Positions 31,268-40,908 of a DNA stretch of 42,051 bases are shown one piece after another. The position numbers were made by a program, and so were the translations under genes. Every line of letters begins with the position of its first letter. Position 1 is the stretch's first letter. Under the pieces are notes generated by a model. It saw only the letters and a list, made by a program, of their open reading frames with translations. It was not told the origin of the DNA and made no database searches. The stretch is from Euryarchaeota archaeon RBG_16_67_27 (lineage in GTDB: Archaea; Thermoplasmatota; Thermoplasmata; RBG-16-68-12): assembly GCA_001800745.1 (NCBI GenBank), contig MGVZ01000047.1:930-42980 (forward strand), given 5' to 3'.

Positions 31268-33583
31268 GTGGCAGCGAGCGCGAGGACGGAGACGAAGGCG
31301 AAGGGCGTCGGGGCGATCACGCGCGTCGCGGGCCCCGTGGTGACGGCGACCGGCCTGATGCCGCGGATGTACGACGTCATGCTCGTGGGCGCGGAGCAGC
31401 TCATGGGCGAGGTCATCCGGATCACCAGGGAGAAGTGCACGATCCAGGTGTACGAGGACACGTCCGGCGTGCGCCCGGGCGAGCCCGTCGTGGACACGGG
31501 ACATCCGCTCACCGTCGAGCTGGGACCCGGCCTCCTCGGGAACATCTACGACGGGATCCAGCGGCCGCTTCCCGTCCTCCAGAAGGTCATGGGAGACTTC
31601 ATCAAGCGCGGGGTGCAGGCACCGGGCCTGAGCAGGGAGAAGCTGTGGGACTTCGTGCCAAAGGTGAAGGAGGGCGCCACGGTCCAGGGCGGGTCCGTGC
31701 TCGGGACCGTCCAGGAGGCGAAGAACGTCGAGCATCGCGTCCTCGTGCCACCGAAGGTGAGCGGGAAGGTCGTCCGCGTCCGGAGCGGCAAGATGAAGGT
31801 CGACGAGGTTGCCGTCGAGCTCGACAACGGCCGCGCGCTCATGCTCAAGCAGGACTGGCCCGTGCGGAGGCCGCGGCCCGTCCTCGAGCGGCTCATGCCG
31901 ACGGTCCCCCTGATCACGGGGCAGCGGGTCATGGACTTCCTGTTCCCGATCGCGAAGGGCGGGACCGCGGCGATACCAGGCGGGTTCGGAACGGGGAAAT
32001 GCGTGGTCGGAGACACCCCGGTCTACCTGACAGATGGGGAGCGGCGACCGATTCGGGAGCTCTACGAGGCCGCCCGCGGCAGCTTCCCGGATGAGGGACG
32101 CGAACAATTCATCTTCCTCCGAGAACCGCTGAACGTCTGGACGTTCGACGGAGAAGGAATCCGTCCGGGGCGTGCGACCGCGATGTATCGAGGTCGGACG
32201 GCCCGGCTCACCGAATTGGTTCTCGGAAGCGGGAGACATGTCCGGCTCACTCCCGTCCACAGGTTGCTCCGGTCCGAGAATGGATTGCTTATGGACACCG
32301 CCGCGGAACAGCTGCAACCTGGAGATCTCATCGCAGTCCCGACATGCGTCCCCGCCCACACCGCCGCGCAATCGCAATCGGTCGCTTCCGACGCCGTCCA
32401 GCAGGTGGAGCTGCCGGTGACAGCCGGGGTTGCCCTCGATCCCGTGAAGGAGGTCCGCACCTGGAGTGAATCGACCGACGTCTACGACCTCACCGTCGAG
32501 GACACGCACAACTTCGTCGGCGGCGAGCTGCCAATGATTCTGCACAACACAGTTTCCGAGCAACAGCTCTCAAAGTGGTGTGACGCGCAGGTCGTCATCT
32601 ACATTGGCTGCGGCGAGCGCGGCAACGAGATGACGGAGGTCCTGACGACGTTCCCGAAGCTCGAGGACCCGTACACCGGCGCGCCCCTCATGGAGCGGAT
32701 GGCCCTGATCGCGAACACGAGCAACATGCCGGTCGCAGCACGGGAGGCGTCCGTCTACACGGGCATGACGCTCGCGGAGTACTACCGGGACATGGGCTAC
32801 AACGTCGCCCTCATGGCCGACTCGACCTCCCGATGGGCCGAGGCGATGCGCGAGCTCTCGAGCCGCCTCGAGGAGATGCCCGGGGAGGAGGGCTTCCCCG
32901 CCCACCTCAGCGCCCGGCTCAGCGAGTTCTACGAGCGTGCAGGGCGCGCGAAGACCCTCAACGGTCTCGAGGGCTCCGTGTCCGTCGTCGGCGCGGTGTC
33001 GCCGAGCGGCGGCGATTTCTCCGAGCCCGTGACCCAGGGGACCCTGCGCATCGTCAAGGTGTTCTGGGCGCTGGACACCGCGCTCCGCGCGCGGCGTCAC
33101 TTCCCCGCGATCAACTGGCTCACGTCGTACAGCCTGTACGTGCAGACCCTCGACGACTACTTCCGGACGAAAGTGAACGAGGAGTGGCCGAAGCTCCGGA
33201 AGTGGACGCAGCGGACGCTGCAGGAGGAAGCGGAGCTCGAGGAGATCGTCCGCCTCGTCGGCGCGGACGCGCTCCCGCCCGAGCAGCAGCTCACCCTCGA
33301 GGTGGCGCGGATGATCCGGGAGATCTTCCTCCAGCAGAACGCGTACCACCCCGTGGACACGTTCTGCCCGCCCGAACGGCAGTTCCGGCTCATCTCCGCG
33401 ATCCACCGGTATGCGGACCTCGGCGCGAAGGCCGTCGCCCTCGATGTGCCGCTCAAGGATGTCGCGAGCCTGAAGTCCCGCGAGCTCCTCACCCGCGTGA
33501 AGTACGAGGAGAAGTTCGACGCAGAGCTCGAGAAGACCCTGGGCCAGATGGAGGACGAGTTCAAGCGACTGGAGGTGCGATGA
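31268..33583 (+). CDS. atpA: A-type ATP synthase catalytic subunit A, intein-containing
   Basis: [15 protein letters not shown]-loop GGFGTGK|T interrupted by an intein, [29 protein letters not shown]. Confidence 0.97.
32000..32548 (+). mobile_element. Mini-intein (183 aa, no homing endonuclease) in the AtpA P-loop
   Basis: Begins CVVGDTPV after GTGK, contains block B LTPVHR and block F VYDLTV...HNFV, and ends LHN before Thr. Codon usage is less GC-biased than the host gene. Confidence 0.95.
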
Positions 33584-36060
33584 TGGCGAAGGAATACCGC
33601 ACGATCACGGAGGTCGCTGGGCCGCTGATCTTCGTCGAGAGGACGGAGCCCGTCGGGTACAACGAGCTCGTCGAGATCATGCTCCCGGACGGAGCACGGA
33701 GGCGGGGCCAGGTCCTCGACTCCTCGACGGACGTCGTCGTCGTCCAGGTCTTCGAGGGGACCGCGGGGATCGACCGTCAGGCGAGCGTGAAGTTCCTCGG
33801 GGAGACGATCAAGCTCTCCGTGTCGCGGGACATGCTCGGTCGCGTCCTCACGGGCTCGGGCGAGCCCGCGGACGGCGGCCCGCCGATCGTCCCGGAGATG
33901 CGTCGCGAGATCACGGGCGCAGCGATCAACCCGTACTCCCGCGAGCACCCCGCGGAGTTCATCCAGACCGGGATCTCGACAATCGACGGGCTCAACACGC
34001 TCGTCCGCGGGCAGAAGCTCCCGCTCTTCTCCGGTGCGGGGCTGCCCCACAACGATGTCGCGCTCCAGATCGCGCGGCAGGCGAAGGTCCTCGGTTCGAA
34101 GGAGCCGTTCGGCGTCGTCTTCGCGGCGATGGGGATCACCCACGAGGAGGCCCGCGTGTTCATGAACGACTTCGAGCGCACGGGCGCCCTCAAGCGCGCG
34201 GTCCTGTTCCAGAACCTGGCAGACGACCCCGCGGTCGAGCGACTCATCACGCCTCGGATGGCGTTGACCGCCGCGGAGTTCCTCGCGTACGAGGTCGGCA
34301 TGCACGTCCTCGTCATCCTGACGGACATGACGAACTACGCGGAGGCACTGCGGCAGATTGGCGCGGCGCGGGAGGAGGTGCCGGGTCGGCGCGGCTATCC
34401 GGGGTACATGTACAGCGTGGATGCAAGTCGAAACGTTGTTGTTCGAGATCCCAGAGGTTGGCTTCGTGTCGTTCCCATCGGCGAGTTGTTCCGAGAAATC
34501 TCTGCCACGGCTCCCGTGCGCAATTGGGGCGGCTTCGAGGAGCGGATTGATGTCGCAGGATGGAGTGCACTCAGTGTCACGAGAGGGGGCAAGAGCGTCT
34601 TCCGCCCCATCAGACAGATCGTCCGGCATCGCTACGGTGGCAAGCTAGTCAGGCTTCGGACCCGCCACGGTGAAACGATCGTGACACCGAACCACTCGGT
34701 CTTCACGATTCGCCGAGGAAGGATCGAACCGATCCAGGCAGCAGACATGGTTCCTGGGGCGTTCCTCGCGCATGTCAACCGGGTGCCCGAGGTCGAGACA
34801 GCGCACCTAGATCCGAGGCTGTCAGCGCTCCTCGGCTACTACGTTTCCGAAGGACACGCAACCCGTTACTCAGGGGGAAAAAGACTCTGGTGGAACCACT
34901 ACATCCGAATTGACAATAACGACCCGGCAATCATCGGCAGAATCGAGCAGGCATATCGGACCGTGTTCGGGGCGAAGCCTTCGATGTTCGTGTCCGACAA
35001 GAGGTCGGGCACGATCCGCACTTCTATCGGTGGGAGGCGGTATTACGACATGTTTGTCAAAGAAATGGGATGTGGAACGCGCTCGGCGACCAAACGAATC
35101 CCGAGCCAAGTCCTGTCCGCGCAGCCTGCAGCGAAGCAGGCGTTTCTCAAGGCATACTACGAGGGAGATGGAAAGGCGACAGACCCGCGATACAGGATTA
35201 CACAGTATGACATGGTTACAGTCAGCCCGGGTCTGCGCGATGACCTGACGATCCTTGCCAAGCAGATGATGCCGGAGCGTGTGCCGTCCATCTACAAATG
35301 GAAGGGAAGGAACGCATGGAAGGTGTACCTCTCGACCTACATCCGAGCTCCCTCGGTCGCGTTGAGCGACTCTTTTGCGGCGGAGGTGGCGAAAGTGGAG
35401 ATGGTTGATTCGACGGAGGAGTTCGTCTACGACCTCTGTGTTGAGGGGACAAACAACTTTGTGGACGCCTGTGGTGGCGTAATCCTTCACAATACTGATC
35501 TCGCGACGCTCTACGAGCGCGCGGGCCGCATCCACGGCAGGCCCGGGTCCATCACTCAGATCCCGATCATGTCGATCCCGGACGATGACTGGACGCATCC
35601 GATCGCGGACCTGACCGGCTACATCACGGAGGGGCAGATCGCGGTGAACCGGGACCTCCACCGGAAGGGGATCTACCCGCCCGTCGACCCGCTCCCGTCC
35701 CTGTCGAGACTCATGGACGCGGGGATCGGGAAGGGGCGCACGCGGGAGGACCACAAGCAGGTCTCCGACCAGCTCTACGCCGCGTACGCGGAGGGCAAGG
35801 ACGCCCGCGGGCTCGTCTCGATCGTCGGGAAGGAGGCGCTGTCCGAGAGGGACCGGAAGATGCTCGACTTCGCGGACCGCTTCGAGCAGGAGTTCATCCG
35901 GCAGGGGCCCGAGGAGGACCGGACGATCGAGGAGACCCTCGAGATTGGCTGGAAGCTCCTCGCGACCGTCGACGTCGCCTGGCTCACGAAGATCGACCGG
36001 AAGACCCTCGACGCGTACCACCCCGCGAACCGGGGGAAGGCGGTACAGGTGAGCGCATAG
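33580..36060 (+). CDS. atpB: A-type ATP synthase subunit B, intein-containing
   Basis: [48 protein letters not shown]|[21 protein letters not shown]. Start ATG at 33580 or 33583. Confidence 0.97.
34414..35493 (+). mobile_element. Intein (360 aa) with LAGLIDADG-type homing endonuclease in AtpB
   Basis: Begins SVDAS after GYPGYMY. Block B VTPNHS, endonuclease motifs LLGYYVSEG and [10 protein letters not shown], block F VYDLCV...NNFV. Ends LHN before Thr. Visibly lower GC. Confidence 0.95.
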
Positions 36061-36817: not shown

Positions 36818-39427
36818 TCAGGAGGCGCGGTTCCGCATCCGGCGGTACTTCGTGTGGGCGACGAAGCGGTCGGTGAGCTCCTTCAGCCCGGCGAGGTCCT
36901 CGGGGGATCCGGTCCAGGTCGCCAGGGCGGCGCCGTGCGCCGACTCCAGGTCCGTGAGGAACGCCCGAAGGCCCTTCGCGGACCATCGGGGCACGCGGCC
37001 CCGGTACATCGCGGCGACGAAGACGTCCTTTCCCCGTTCCACGAGCACGGTCTTCCCTGCGAAGTCGAAGCGACGGAGGTGCCCGTCCTCCTCCTTCGAG
37101 ATGTCGCGGACGAACGCGGAGATCGCGGTGAGCATCGCGGCGAGGATGTCCTCATCCCGGTCCGCGCGCATCCGGCGGGTGTTGTGGAGGATGAGCCGGC
37201 CGTCCCGCGCGACCAGGAAGACGTCCTCGACGGAGAAAAGGCGGCGGCCCGCGTACCTGTAGGCGAGGTATCCGGTGCCGACGAGCACGGCCATCGCGAT
37301 CACGAGCGGGTTCACGATCAATCGGGCGACATCGAACGGGACCGCGGTCACGGTCACCCGCAGCCGTTCGGACAGGAACGGCGTCGACGCGGTCACGTTC
37401 CACACCCCGGGTTCTCCCGCGACGAAATACCCCGTCACGTTCACGTGCCCGCCGGGATTGTCCGTCGCCCAGTAGACGACCCACGCGGGCGACGTGTGGT
37501 TCCCCGCGTCGAGGACGGTCGCGTGGAACTGGATCGCGCCTCCGACGGGAGCGCGGAGGTCCCCGTCCGCCCAAACGCGGAGCCGGATCGGGGTCCCGAG
37601 GTAGTCGTACACGACACGGACCTCATCGATCGCAGGGGCTTCGAGCGGGTCCGACGTCGACAGCGTCGCACGGAGGCGCACGGTCCTCCCCTGGACCGCG
37701 GAGAGGTTCCCGCCCGGCGTCGCCATGCGCCAGCCGGTCGCATCCTCGATCTCGTACGCGACCCCGGTGCCCTCGGGCGTCGACGCGACGGCCTCGAACC
37801 GGCGCCAGAAGAGGAAATCGGCGTCCGCGGAGACCGTCGACGTCAGGATGGCGCCGCGGTCCGGATGGCGTTCGGCTTCGATGCGGAAGGTCGTGAGGAG
37901 CGGGGTCACGCTCGCGTTCGTCGTGTTCAGGTCCGCCCGGACGCGCACGAAGCGGGCGGAGTCGGCGACCACCAGCGGACCGGGGGTCGTGCCCACCGCG
38001 AGGACCCACCCGTCATCGGGGACGGGAGTCGATCCCATCCGGACCTCCAGGCGGGCGGACGTGCCCGGGGGCAGGCTCGCCTCCCATGCGACGGAGGCGA
38101 GCGAGACGAGGGAGCCGAGGTCGATCGTCGAGGACACGAAGGAGCCGTTCCGCCGGTCCGGGATCTCGAGCGACACGTTGTCGAGGAGGGCCGTGACGTT
38201 CACCGCGGAAGGCGTCGCCACGGCCACGTGAAGATCGAAGAAGACGGAATAGGTCCCCGGGGCGGCAACGAACGCGCCGACCTCTCGCTCGAAGCGCGTC
38301 CCCGACGAAGGGGCGGATGGAAGGGCCCACGCCATCCACGCGCCGCCGTCGCTCAGGGTCGCGCTCAGCTCGACCGCGTCCGCACCGGACGCGTTCAGCA
38401 CGCGATAATCGAAGCCGAGGGTCGCGCCGCCGGGGGCCGCCGTCGTCCACTTTGTCTTTCCGAACACCTGCGAGAGACGCGCGGTCTCGTCGACCCGCTT
38501 CGCGTTCGCGAGCCGCAGGTCGTCGACGTAGAAGGTGAGGACGTCCTCCGGGGTGTTCCGACCCGTGAAGAGGAGGGTCACCTGGGTGAGCGCGGTCCGG
38601 GCGGGGCCAAGCTCGTCGAGATCGACGAGGACTCGCTGCCACTCCGGGCGGAGAGGGATCGGCGTGGTCGCCACGAACGCGGGGCCCGCGAACGCGGTGA
38701 CATTGAACGACACCTCGAGGTCAGGAGCCGCGGGGGAGCGGATCCACACGAGCAGGGTGTCGAAGCCGGACCAGTCCACGGGGCTCGCCGTCGGCTTCCG
38801 CTCCGGGCCGATCGAGAACGCCGGCGAGGATCCGAGCCGGATCTCCGCCTGCATCATCCCCGTGCCCTCGATCGGCTGCCAGGAGTAGTTGCTCACGACG
38901 ACGGACAGGTCGACTTCGGAGACCCCGCGCCACGTCGAGACCGCGTCATCGAGGGCATCGAAGGGACTCGTAGGGACCTCGGGCGAATCGTGCGCGAGCC
39001 GCGCCACGCGATCCGTCGGGTTCCACGAGGCCGTCACCGCGCCCGCGGTCCCGTTCTCGTACGTCCATGGCGCCGGGACGTCGAATCCGCCCGACTCGAC
39101 GTACGCGCGTTCGTCCGCCGCGAGCACGAGCCCCTCCTCGACGGCCTCGACGGTCGCGTCGGCGGAGCCGTTCGTGAGGAAATCCGGCCCGCGCGCCCAC
39201 GCGAACCCCGCGGCCGCCCAGGGCAGCGTCGCCATGCCGTCGTTAAGGGTCGCGTTCTCGAGAAACAGGTCGTCCGGCGCGTCGAAGGACCAGACGAGCG
39301 TCCGGGTCGCGGAGGGTCCCGGGACGACGACGGGAGCCGCCGAGGTGGAGCCTCCCAGGATCCCGCCCGCGCCGAGAACGAGGAGGACCACGAGGGCGAG
39401 GCTCTGCATCCGGGTCCTCGGGTTCAT
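36818..39427 (-). CDS. Large secreted single-pass membrane protein with cytoplasmic roadblock/longin-like domain
   Basis: Signal peptide (ALVVLLVLGAGG), about 680 aa of beta-rich Thr/Val/Trp extracellular region, a TM helix (PLVIAMAVLVGTGYLAY), then VEDVFLVARDGRLI...DEDILAAMLTAISAFVRD...LRRFDFAGKTVLVERGKDVFVAAMY. ATG at 39427 after GGAG. Confidence 0.75.
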   Translation of the reverse strand: MNPRTRMQSLALVVLLVLGAGGILGGSTSAAPVVVPGPSATRTLVWSFDAPDDLFLENATLNDGMATLPWAAAGFAWARGPDFLTNGSADATVEAVEEGLVLAADERAYVESGGFDVPAPWTYENGTAGAVTASWNPTDRVARLAHDSPEVPTSPFDALDDAVSTWRGVSEVDLSVVVSNYSWQPIEGTGMMQAEIRLGSSPAFSIGPERKPTASPVDWSGFDTLLVWIRSPAAPDLEVSFNVTAFAGPAFVATTPIPLRPEWQRVLVDLDELGPARTALTQVTLLFTGRNTPEDVLTFYVDDLRLANAKRVDETARLSQVFGKTKWTTAAPGGATLGFDYRVLNASGADAVELSATLSDGGAWMAWALPSAPSSGTRFEREVGAFVAAPGTYSVFFDLHVAVATPSAVNVTALLDNVSLEIPDRRNGSFVSSTIDLGSLVSLASVAWEASLPPGTSARLEVRMGSTPVPDDGWVLAVGTTPGPLVVADSARFVRVRADLNTTNASVTPLLTTFRIEAERHPDRGAILTSTVSADADFLFWRRFEAVASTPEGTGVAYEIEDATGWRMATPGGNLSAVQGRTVRLRATLSTSDPLEAPAIDEVRVVYDYLGTPIRLRVWADGDLRAPVGGAIQFHATVLDAGNHTSPAWVVYWATDNPGGHVNVTGYFVAGEPGVWNVTASTPFLSERLRVTVTAVPFDVARLIVNPLVIAMAVLVGTGYLAYRYAGRRLFSVEDVFLVARDGRLILHNTRRMRADRDEDILAAMLTAISAFVRDISKEEDGHLRRFDFAGKTVLVERGKDVFVAAMYRGRVPRWSAKGLRAFLTDLESAHGAALATWTGSPEDLAGLKELTDRFVAHTKYRRMRNRAS

Positions 39428-39612
39428 GCTCCTGCCTCCCGCGTCCGCGGGCGCGCCGTTCGGATCTCCCCCTGGCTCCCGGCCCGAGACCCCTTCCCCC
39501 ACCCGCCTGCGTTGCAGGCACCGGGTCAGGGAGCGCGTCCATCGGACGGAGCCTACTTAACGATTTCGCGCGCGAGCCCGATGCCCGCGGCCTGTGCACG
39601 GGGAATCCAGGT

Positions 39613-40164
39613 CTACGCGCGCTGGAGCTGGGCCTTCGCGACGACATCCGCGAGCCGCCGGAAGGCCTCCTCGACGCTGCCTCCCGTCTTCGCGCTCGTG
39701 ATCACGTAGCCGCATTCGAACGCCTTCGCGACCTGCTGGACATCGAGCTCCGAGAACTGGGCTTCCGTCGAGAGATCCGTCTTGTTCACGGCGATGAAGA
39801 TCGGGACCTTCCCGACGACCTGCTCGACGCCATCGATCCAGTCGTCCAGGTCGTCGAGCGTCCGGCGGCGGGTGAGGTCGGCAACGGCGAGGATGCCGTT
39901 CGCGCCGTAGAAGTACGCGTCCTTAAGCAGCTCCCGGAACCCTTTCTCGCCCATGATATCCCAGATCGTCATGTCGACGTCCACGACGAGGTCCTTCTCC
40001 GGGTCGAAGACGCGGACCTCCTTCTTCGAGACCTTCGTGCCGATCGTCGTGATGTAGTGGTCGTCGAACATGTTCAGGACGTACCTGCGGATCAGGGACG
40101 TCTTGCCGACGGCTTTCTCGCCGACGAGACAGATCTTCGACTTCAGGTGCTTCGTCGTCGTCAT
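39613..40164 (-). CDS. Rab-like Ras-superfamily small GTPase
   Basis: G1 GEKAVGKTS, G2 YITTIG, G3 WDIMGE, YFYGA, G4 NKTD, G5 TSAKTG. Confidence 0.93.
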   Translation of the reverse strand: MTTTKHLKSKICLVGEKAVGKTSLIRRYVLNMFDDHYITTIGTKVSKKEVRVFDPEKDLVVDVDMTIWDIMGEKGFRELLKDAYFYGANGILAVADLTRRRTLDDLDDWIDGVEQVVGKVPIFIAVNKTDLSTEAQFSELDVQQVAKAFECGYVITSAKTGGSVEEAFRRLADVVAKAQLQRA

Positions 40165-40246
40165 CGCACACGACCGGATGTGGGGGAGGTTCGTTCCATA
40201 TGACGGGGTTACTTAGTCGTTTTGGACCATTTTTCTTGACCGGGAA

Positions 40247-40810
40247 TCACGCAGAGGCTCGGATCCCCTCCTTCGCGAGGATCATCGCGCCGATCCGGCG
40301 GAACGCGGCCTCGACGTTGTCCCCGGTCTTCGCGGACGTGTAGAAGTGGGGCGCGTCGAAGGCCCGCGTCGCCTGACCGATCTCGCGCTCGCCGTAGAGG
40401 ATCTGGACCTGGTCCTTCAGGTCGATCTTGTTGATCGCGTAGACCACGGGGACCTGGCCGACGACGTTGAACACGCTCTGGACCCAGTCGTCGAGCTCCT
40501 TGAGCGTGGAGTACCGCGTGAGGTCGGCCACGGCGAGGACGCCCTTCGCGCCGTGGAAGAACGCCTCCTTCAGGAGGTCCCGGAACCCTTTCTCGCCCAT
40601 GATGTCCCAGACGGTCATGTCCATCCGGACGGAGGTCGACGGCTCGGGGACGTCGTAGAGCTGCTCGCGCTTCGACACCTTCGCGCCGAGGGTCGTGATG
40701 TAGCGGTCGTCGAACTCGTCGAGCACGTAGCGCCGCACGAGGCTCGTCTTCCCGACGGCGGCCTCCCCAACGAGGCAGACCTTCGTCTTCATCCGCACGA
40801 CGTCGGACAT
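40247..40810 (-). CDS. Rab-like Ras-superfamily small GTPase (paralog)
   Basis: G1 GEAAVGKTS, G2 YITTLG, G3 WDIMGE, FFHGA, G4 NKID, G5 TSAKTG. ATG at 40810. Confidence 0.93.
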   Translation of the reverse strand: MSDVVRMKTKVCLVGEAAVGKTSLVRRYVLDEFDDRYITTLGAKVSKREQLYDVPEPSTSVRMDMTVWDIMGEKGFRDLLKEAFFHGAKGVLAVADLTRYSTLKELDDWVQSVFNVVGQVPVVYAINKIDLKDQVQILYGEREIGQATRAFDAPHFYTSAKTGDNVEAAFRRIGAMILAKEGIRASA

Positions 40811-40839
40811 CGGGGCCGGCGTCCGATTCGCCCCGGGAT

Positions 40840-40847
40840 TACTTAAA
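40840..40847 (-). promoter_or_regulatory. Putative TATA box for the first GTPase
   Basis: TTTAAGTA on the minus strand about 30 nt upstream of the ATG at 40810. Confidence 0.55.
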
Positions 40848-40908
40848 GGTACTGCGGTGAATCGCAATCCACGCGAACCTTTTTCCGACCGCTACCGATG
40901 CGGACGTG

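Follow-up and report, generated by a model that had tools for sequence, protein, structure and literature searches.

The gene trio described here lies in a 42,051-nucleotide stretch of the genome of Euryarchaeota archaeon RBG_16_67_27 (contig MGVZ01000047.1). We refer to this whole stretch as the window, and all coordinates are given in its numbering unless a contig is named. The genome itself amounts to 1.55 Mb and is 75% complete. The original prediction, made from the letters alone, had placed three co-oriented genes at 36818..40810, and three minus-strand open reading frames could indeed be listed there. Two of them code for small GTPases and the third for a surface protein with a cytoplasmic tail. 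Homology, gene order and co-occurrence suggest that these proteins probably form a membrane-anchored small-GTPase switch, which would correspond in archaea to the Group 1 Rup system of bacteria.

Two Ras-family GTPases and a surface protein

GTPase A (187 amino acids) is encoded at 40247..40810 on the minus strand within an open frame that extends over 40247-40867, and GTPase B (183 amino acids) at 39613..40164 on the same strand. For GTPase A, translation from ATG 40810 affords the exact 187-residue protein that is on public record, where a form starting from 40792 is absent. Both proteins belong to the Ras family: Pfam Ras (PF00071) matched GTPase A with an E-value of 1.9e-27 and GTPase B with 5e-33 (114.4 and 96.2 bits for the pair, both above the cut-off of 21.6), and both passed NCBIfam small_GTP. 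The two sequences are 56% identical and carry the P-loops GEAAVGKT and GEKAVGKT together with the motifs YITTLG/YITTIG, VWDIMG/IWDIMG, FFHGAKG/YFYGANG, NKID/NKTD and TSAKTG. The Ras match and the presence of the motifs quoted in the original prediction bear out its claim of two stand-alone, Rab-like small GTPases. Motifs G1, G2, G4 and G5 are intact in both proteins, and the motifs are kept across an alignment of 31 sequences. The G3 motif reads DIMGE in both GTPases and so contains a glutamate at the position where, in the Ras superfamily, the catalytic glutamine follows DxxG.

The best relative of GTPase B among solved structures is a Thorarchaeota Rab (7ezb, 8.5e-24), followed by Ypt6 and Rab6; for both GTPases the closest solved relatives are Rabs, and the best solved-chain matches are mostly Rab, Ypt or Sec4 proteins. 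RabF and RabSF motifs are features of the Rab family, and a C-terminal prenylation motif with cysteine is a feature of Rabs of the eukaryotic type. Neither GTPase A nor GTPase B contains a cysteine in at least the last 10 residues, and inspection of the sequences revealed no C-terminal cysteine motif and no N-terminal lipidation signal that could provide a lipid anchor.

Each of the three genes constitutes a conserved orthologue group. In GTPase trees that are quick, unrooted and calculated without the published Rup reference set, the groups of GTPase A and GTPase B are supported by Shimodaira–Hasegawa-like approximate likelihood ratio test (SH-aLRT) values of 93 and 96, respectively, and archaeal GTPases cluster apart from bacterial ones with values of 93 and 89 in two trees. 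The genome encodes exactly 14 Rup-like GTPases, only four of which retain the catalytic glutamine. Three of the 14 (C22:3653-4483, C6:18047-18895 and C16:3823-4683) combine this glutamine with C-terminal extensions of ~100 residues; a Pfam scan of these extensions gave no match, and they could be built-in output domains. At C28:5312-7134 (L169), three Rup-like GTPase genes stand in tandem between the genes for LonB protease and ribosomal protein L4, with no tail protein nearby.

The third gene of the trio (36818..39427, minus strand; open frame 36818-39502) codes for 869 amino acids plus the stop codon, and the protein translated from ATG 39427 equals public gene call P0093. A signal peptide, a large ectodomain, one transmembrane helix and a tail of ~140 residues had been predicted for it. 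A hydropathy scan recovered this layout as a hydrophobic, signal-like stretch at the N-terminus, an ectodomain of 672 residues, one transmembrane helix and an arginine-rich tail, which measures 146 residues. On the minus strand, the ectodomain occupies 37322..39337, the transmembrane helix 37259..37321 (residues 728-748 in an 894-residue numbering, with the arginine-rich stretch after it), and the conserved cytoplasmic tail domain of ~128 residues 36854..37237. All 15 N-x-S/T sequons for N-glycosylation in the protein fall into the ectodomain, whereas shuffled sequences average 3.1 and never exceed 9 (n=1000). Since these sequons are all N-terminal to the transmembrane helix, the topology can be assigned as N-terminus outside and C-terminus inside, which fits a single-pass, N-glycosylated type I membrane protein. 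Scans of the full-length protein with Pfam and NCBIfam returned no family, and Pfam found no domain in the ectodomain of either the window protein or its orthologue at locus L001.

The tail domain and the roadblock/longin superfamily

A search with the tail alone returned 27 relatives of similar length with a nearly invariant core. Using a profile made from a joint archaeal and bacterial alignment of 32 diverse members (A3), we found matches in 6,847 representative clusters at E <= 1e-3 and in 4,875 at E <= 1e-10. No Pfam model covers the tail domain in any of the 40 family proteins scanned, 20 of which contain an OmpA domain, and the public names of family proteins are only 'OmpA family protein', 'BON domain-containing protein' or 'hypothetical protein'. 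Architectures were counted in 146 of the best 150 representatives. The archaeal layout, in which a transmembrane helix precedes a C-terminal domain, is found in 71 of these, and the bacterial layout, in which the domain precedes the helix, in 25. A helix, the domain and further sequence follow one another in two proteins, and 48, many of them fragments, have no transmembrane helix beside the domain.

The genome of the window encodes 10 tail proteins with varied, adhesin-like ectodomains. Among these and related proteins, the ectodomains combine an FG-GAP propeller with Big_9 or Big_5 with fn3 and NosD, or they consist of DUF11/CARDB or cadherin-like domains; a Pfam scan of the tenth protein of the own genome gave no family. 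Some Thermoplasmatota contain expansions with at least 17-19 scored matches per genome. The occurrence of one tail on such diverse ectodomains suggests a family of surface receptors or adhesins that would feed one GTPase network.

Two or three tandem copies of the tail domain are present in 27 of the 146 family proteins, as would be expected of a dimeric platform. Proteins with two tandem tail domains occur at loci L125, L126, L136, L138, L139 and L141, and those at L136, L138 and L139 abut a GTPase gene. At L129, L135, L145 and L151, two tail-protein genes lie side by side. Tandem domains and paired genes accord with a dimeric platform.

The original prediction compared the tail to the roadblock/longin fold. 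This comparison is moderately supported at the level of profiles (E 8.5e-5), whereas hits of single sequences to Pfam Robl_LC7 stayed below the cut-off and solved structures gave no significant match. The E-value stems from a profile-profile alignment (hhalign) of the tail with 22 canonical roadblock proteins, which covered 100 columns with a probability of 60.4. Alignment to canonical roadblock proteins from related genomes gave a P-value of 1.1e-4, and the use of 176 domain instances one of 4.5e-5. These three alignments cover 98-100 columns in the same register; they begin at strand 1 and extend to the helix that follows strand 5. As controls, the reversed profile scored 12.3 (real: 32.4), 60 column shuffles reached at most 18.5, and 60 block shuffles at most 27.5; decoy comparisons with the GTPase alignment gave P-values of 0.69 and 0.03. 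The roadblock alignment was validated by its matches to the structures of Roadblock/LC7, CvnB5, MglB and dynein light chain proteins. At the level of single sequences, the window tail matched Robl_LC7 (PF03259) over profile positions 14-83 of 91 with 14.6 bits (cut-off 23). Robl_LC7 matches at E <= 1 were obtained for nine of the 32 diverse members, with a best value of 7.4e-4, and no other family recurs; Fuz_longin_1 matched one of the 32 (2e-4).

Positions 5-108 of the tail align to positions 35-138 of 147 in the roadblock alignment. The N-terminal helix of roadblock proteins has no counterpart in the tail, where the transmembrane helix ends a few residues before strand 1, and ~35 residues are added at the C-terminus. 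Loss of the N-terminal helix and gain of a C-terminal part is the difference between longin and roadblock domains as described in PMC10933270. A crude propensity profile reads strand, strand, helix, ambiguous stretch, strand, strand, helix, helix, which fits the longin order of strand-strand-helix-strand-strand-strand-helix-helix.

We also examined covariation within the tail family by a mean-field method on 416 sequences (effective number, Neff, 260), with secondary-structure elements that were defined by the analyst. This calculation returned 21 long-range pairs at or above 1.24, compared to 1-7 in ten column permutations. Some of these pairs couple helix 1 to strands 1-4, helix 2 to strands 4-5, and helix 3 both to strands 1-2 and to helix 2. 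By this signal, helices 2 and 3 contact strands 5, 2 and 1, and the pairs fit an arrangement with one helix on one face of the sheet and two on the other. Two pairs connect strands 1 and 5 in one antiparallel register (ranks 18 and 21 of 6,441; median rank 22 each in 15 subsamples). The best strand partners are 1-5, 3-4, 4-5 and 1-2, so that the covariation is suggestive of the sheet order 2-1-5-4-3.

Several observations count against this assignment. The Robl_LC7 scores of single sequences (14.6-15.1 bits) all fall under the gathering cut-off of 23, and in a second set of 50 mostly archaeal members only three matched Robl_LC7, with a best value of 0.024. The hhalign probabilities are just 56-69%. 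Profile searches of solved structures gave no significant roadblock or longin match; the best relevant one was TRAPPC1 with an E-value of 0.27, which aligned between strand 1 and the first helix. Covariation gave a weak signal, as single pairs at 1.25 lie within the range of the permuted maxima (1.18-1.55), and the estimated false-discovery rate is ~14%. A search of the own genome with a hidden Markov model against single sequences did not draw the canonical roadblock proteins near the tail family. The top matches of profile A3 among solved structures were de novo helical proteins, which we judged to be spurious. On balance, it is likely, with moderate support from the profiles, that the tail belongs to the roadblock/longin superfamily.

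Tail and GTPase genes across archaea and bacteria

In a survey of synteny in Thermoplasmatota, which had been proposed along with the prediction, the genes are adjacent in 13 of the 15 assessable closest loci and abut in eight of 40 others, and 30 of these 40 have no nearby GTPase. The closest loci are 21 in number (L001-L021), six of which start too near the tail gene to be assessed. The order GTPase A, GTPase B, surface protein is kept in 13 of the remaining 15; the exceptions contain only a GTPase fragment (L017) or a single GTPase on the opposite strand (L021).

More distant loci broaden this picture. In the own genome a GTPase gene abuts three of the 10 tail genes; these include the tail genes on contigs C17 and C6, each of which is followed by a GTPase gene at a distance of less than 50 bp. 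The three canonical Robl_LC7 genes of this genome all lack a Rup-like GTPase within 6 kb. The 40 Thermoplasmatota tail loci from other genomes are the best-scoring places outside the own genome. A GTPase is present in 10 of them, and in eight the GTPase frame lies less than 300 bp from the tail frame. The abutting pairs in this set are convergent, divergent or tandem, and the GTPases come from at least six subclades. At one locus (L130, G116:C22:8700-28600), two tail-protein genes and three GTPase genes lie within ~12 kb in alternating orientations.

The two families also occur together at the level of genomes. Among 201 Thermoplasmatota genomes, 34 contain both families, one contains only the tail, three contain only the GTPase, and 163 contain neither; in the 34 genomes, the numbers of tail and GTPase matches correlate with a Spearman coefficient of 0.66. 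The corresponding numbers for 121 genomes of cyanobacteria are 23, one, two and 95, and in 21 of the 23 with both families the genes lie within ~2 kb of each other. Four genomes of one genus (G141, G184, G188 and G204) each contain exactly one tail match and one Rup-like GTPase match, on different contigs where both places are listed, which looks like a minimal one-to-one system without adjacency.

In bacteria, the GTPase gene is directly downstream of the tail-domain gene in 26 of 46 assessable loci, and adjacency spans Nitrospirota, Verrucomicrobiota, Bacteroidota, Pseudomonadota and Cyanobacteriota. Eighteen of the 20 exceptions are one Microcoleus paralogue of ~1205 amino acids (L033 and 17 similar loci), in which long coiled-coil repeats precede the domain and which lacks an adjoining GTPase gene.

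Three points diminish the weight of these counts. The pyrF and atpD flanks of the trio are conserved in the closest relatives too; therefore, adjacency there is ordinary synteny and not independent evidence. In 30 of the 40 archaeal tail loci sampled, the stretch examined contains no GTPase. Finally, the co-occurrence counts overstate the statistical weight, because related genomes are not independent. Taken together, gene order and distribution nevertheless make it very likely that tail and GTPase are functionally linked.

This linkage has a bacterial precedent. The archaeal tail profile matches the central domain of bacterial proteins that are composed of a coiled coil, this domain, a transmembrane helix and a BON/OmpA region, with E-values of 1e-12 to 1e-22, and by this measure the archaeal tail is homologous to the bacterial domain linked to Rup GTPases. 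In Phormidium (L056) and Nitrospira (L024), the domain protein is built as coiled coil, domain, transmembrane helix and BON/OmpA, and the next gene codes for a Ras-family GTPase, its start touching the stop codon of the domain gene. The GTPase gene is followed by a gene for a PAS/GAF cyclase or a sigma-54 activator, and the set at L056 is preceded by a gene for a coiled-coil protein. According to the part of the original Rup paper that was available (PMC4316618), OmpA membrane proteins with a 'domain of unknown function' flank Group 1 Rup GTPases, the output enzyme of the system has an N-terminal domain with an invariant glutamine, none of 121 Rup sequences is coupled to MglB, and Group 1 Rup is reported from bacteria only. 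In the same part of this work, Wuichet and Sogaard-Andersen (2015) left the Rup-linked domain unassigned (PMC4316618). The original prediction missed this Group 1 Rup precedent, and the module is thus not unprecedented.

Because the tail domain and the kind of GTPase match, we regard the archaeal locus as a variant of the Group 1 Rup system. Both systems contain a Ras-like GTPase with eukaryote-like G motifs and without the G3 glutamine, and in both a neighbouring membrane protein holds the same domain on the cytoplasmic side of a single transmembrane helix. The order of parts is different, however: the archaeal protein runs from ectodomain to transmembrane helix to domain, whereas the bacterial one runs from domain to transmembrane helix to BON/OmpA. 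Unlike its bacterial counterparts, the window protein lacks a C-terminal OmpA peptidoglycan-binding domain according to Pfam, and its ectodomain is N-terminal. The archaeal locus contains two GTPases instead of one, and the GTPases of archaea form a separate clade (SH-aLRT 93). Copy numbers differ as well, with 10 tail proteins and 14 GTPases in the archaeal genome; each of five bacterial genomes that were checked has one tail-domain match, and positive cyanobacterial genomes contain 1-2 GTPase matches. The archaeal locus, bounded by pyrF and atpD, includes neither a coiled-coil partner nor an output enzyme. Single L056 proteins used as queries against the own genome, which is 75% complete, found neither the coiled-coil partner nor the N-terminal domain of the output enzyme, and this weak test speaks against the parallel.

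Possible mechanism, alternatives and further features of the locus

How might such a switch operate? In the mechanism that we propose, the tail would serve as a cytoplasmic platform of the roadblock/longin type, probably as a dimer. GTPases A and B, with no lipid-anchor motif and no catalytic glutamine, would dock on this platform, which would bring them to the membrane and set their nucleotide state, either as a GTPase-activating protein (GAP) similar to MglB or as a guanine nucleotide exchange factor (GEF) similar to longin proteins. What happens at the ectodomain, be it adhesion, the binding of a ligand or clustering, would in this way be coupled to GTPase signalling in the cytoplasm. We infer physical binding, dimerisation, the direction of regulation (GEF or GAP) and the input signal. 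Recruitment and control by the tail is the most economical reading because the GTPases are intact, unanchored and without the glutamine, while the tail is tethered to the membrane, conserved, often duplicated and probably related to dimeric platforms for small GTPases. The alignment of the tail family contains no invariant arginine, glutamine or asparagine, which makes a GAP of the finger type unlikely; an MglB-like positioning GAP or a longin-like GEF would fit better. That the tail regulates the GTPases as GEF or GAP is, on these grounds, possible rather than probable.

The tail could also be an effector or anchor, so that GTP-bound GTPases control the surface proteins from inside and have their own cycling set by other proteins. 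Much like inside-out control of adhesion receptors, this control could affect how the surface proteins cluster, where they are positioned, how they turn over or how strongly they adhere. This explanation would account for one tail module on many unrelated ectodomains in one genome, for tail proteins that outnumber the adjacent GTPases, for a tail family without an invariant residue of catalytic type, and for GTPases without a lipid anchor. We consider it rather unlikely, since known roadblock/longin partners of small GTPases are mostly GAPs or GEFs (PMC10933270) and the bacterial homologues adjoin signalling output enzymes, not sorting machinery.

A second alternative is that the tail serves a separate purpose, for example oligomerisation or the sensing of small molecules, and that the GTPases are mere neighbours by inherited gene order. 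The conservation of the whole pyrF-to-atpD neighbourhood in close relatives agrees with this idea, as do the 30 of 40 sampled loci with no nearby GTPase, the ~1205-residue Microcoleus paralogue without an adjoining GTPase, and the four genomes of one genus with tail and GTPase on different contigs. Against this stands the co-occurrence in 34 of 35 and 23 of 24 tail-positive genomes from two domains of life, as well as abutting pairs in all orientations with GTPases from at least six subclades and adjacency across five bacterial phyla, which render inherited neighbourhood improbable. A small-GTPase system for anti-phage defence can be dismissed almost entirely: the matches (NCBIfam DS8_antiphage, E 0.093; PADLOC VakA and mad8, E 0.007-0.009) remain at the level of the P-loop with no stretch passing alone, no PADLOC defence family matches any protein of the trio over a domain, no effector domain is present, and the locus sits in conserved housekeeping synteny from pyrF to the ATPase operon.

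The recruitment-and-control reading places the trio next to several known systems. MglA-MglB consists of a Ras-like GTPase with a Roadblock/LC7 dimer as its GAP. The window system resembles it in that a small GTPase is combined with a probable roadblock-superfamily partner whose strands 1-5 and central helix are in register with the roadblock ones. The partner in the window is fused to a membrane receptor, however, and it lacks the N-terminal helix of roadblock proteins and has ~35 extra C-terminal residues. The window GTPases are Rup/Rab-like and not MglA-like, and the canonical roadblock genes of the own genome do not adjoin these GTPases. Eukaryotic longin GEF platforms (TRAPPC1/C4 of TRAPP, Mon1-Ccz1) and Ragulator-Rag share with the window a Rab-like GTPase, a candidate longin order of elements and a platform at the membrane. 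They differ in that they show no significant sequence match to the window tail (TRAPPC1 only, E 0.27), in that the platform here is part of a transmembrane surface protein, and in that the module here has no TRAPPC3-like or other subunits and its GTPases have no prenylation site.

The Streptomyces conservon (CvnA-D), as cited in PMC4316618, likewise unites a sensor in the membrane with a roadblock protein and a Ras-like GTPase in one membrane-associated module. In the conservon, the roadblock protein CvnB is soluble and separate from the sensor, which is a histidine kinase, and the GTPase belongs to the MglA type, whereas the trio has a platform fused to the receptor, no kinase and Rup-type GTPases. 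Asgard archaea also hold many Rab-like GTPases in one archaeon, and the nearest solved relative of GTPase B is from Thorarchaeota. In contrast, the window organism belongs to a non-Asgard lineage, and its gene order reveals the pairing. The Asgard strain that has been studied generally does not group its GTPase genes into operons with roadblock or longin genes (PMC10933270). Outside Asgard, a single Rab-like protein was reported earlier from each of a Thermoplasmatales archaeon and Aciduliprofundum (PMC4915359), compared to 14 in the genome of the window.

The type of GTPase, its missing catalytic glutamine and its bacterial membrane partner are already in print. Our literature search turned up no account of the module in archaea (archaeal Rup members may be listed in supplementary table S2 of PMC4316618), of the tail domain as the common tail of many surface proteins, or of the tail and GTPase expansions in Thermoplasmatota. 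It also found no fold assignment for the Rup-linked domain, and the term 'Rup GTPase' in PMC4316618 only. With the present data, a family of 6,847 clusters gains a testable proposed function as the membrane partner of Rup/Rab-like GTPases. Rab-like expansions extend beyond the Asgard archaea, and GTPase-regulator pairs that are hard to read from Asgard gene order are here encoded adjacently and can be cloned directly. The shared domain suggests an old wiring of the cell surface to a GTPase switch. If the assignment to roadblock/longin is true, MglA-MglB, bacterial Rup and eukaryotic Rab-longin GEFs would be versions of one ancestral arrangement.

As a wider and tentative picture, for which we see somewhat less than even chances, some non-Asgard archaea may run signalling similar to that of adhesion receptors. 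As many as ~20 single-pass surface glycoproteins in one genome, whose ectodomains are integrin-like (FG-GAP), cadherin-like, Ig-like or of the beta-helix type, would each carry the same longin/roadblock platform as a cytoplasmic tail, and this platform would recruit and regulate an expanded set of Rab-like GTPases. Bacterial Rup GTPases would also have a roadblock-superfamily partner, and the pairing of Ras-superfamily GTPase and platform would be universal and predate the eukaryotic Rab-GEF systems.

The trio is flanked by a divergent gene for orotidine monophosphate decarboxylase (pyrF) on one side and by the convergent D subunit gene of an A-type ATPase operon (atpD) on the other. Parts of 36818-40867 are present in 19 public DNA runs whose label is soil or sediment metagenome; 13 of these runs contain half or more of the sampled words, and the list includes no RNA run. 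A TAAGTA box precedes each gene of the trio on the minus strand. The box at 40840..40845, a candidate promoter or regulator site, lies 30 nt upstream of the start codon of GTPase A, the one at 40210..40215 lies 46 nt upstream of that of GTPase B, and the one at 39554..39559 lies 127 nt before ATG 39427 of the surface-protein gene. These are the only three copies in the whole 42-kb window, a number that none of 100 shuffles reached, and the box is retained at all three positions in eight of 12 orthologous loci. Across the 1.55-Mb genome the box occurs only 54 times, once at a further GTPase gene on contig C51. TAAGTA may be a shared promoter or regulator site of the trio, and we count this rare common box as independent evidence for the link between tail and GTPase. 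In the ATPase operon, the plus-strand genes of the A and B subunits (31268-33583 and 33583-36060) each contain an intein: Pfam Intein_splicing matches inside ATP-synt_ab with E-values of 9.6e-18 and 9.2e-13, respectively, and the insert in the B subunit spans ~300 residues.

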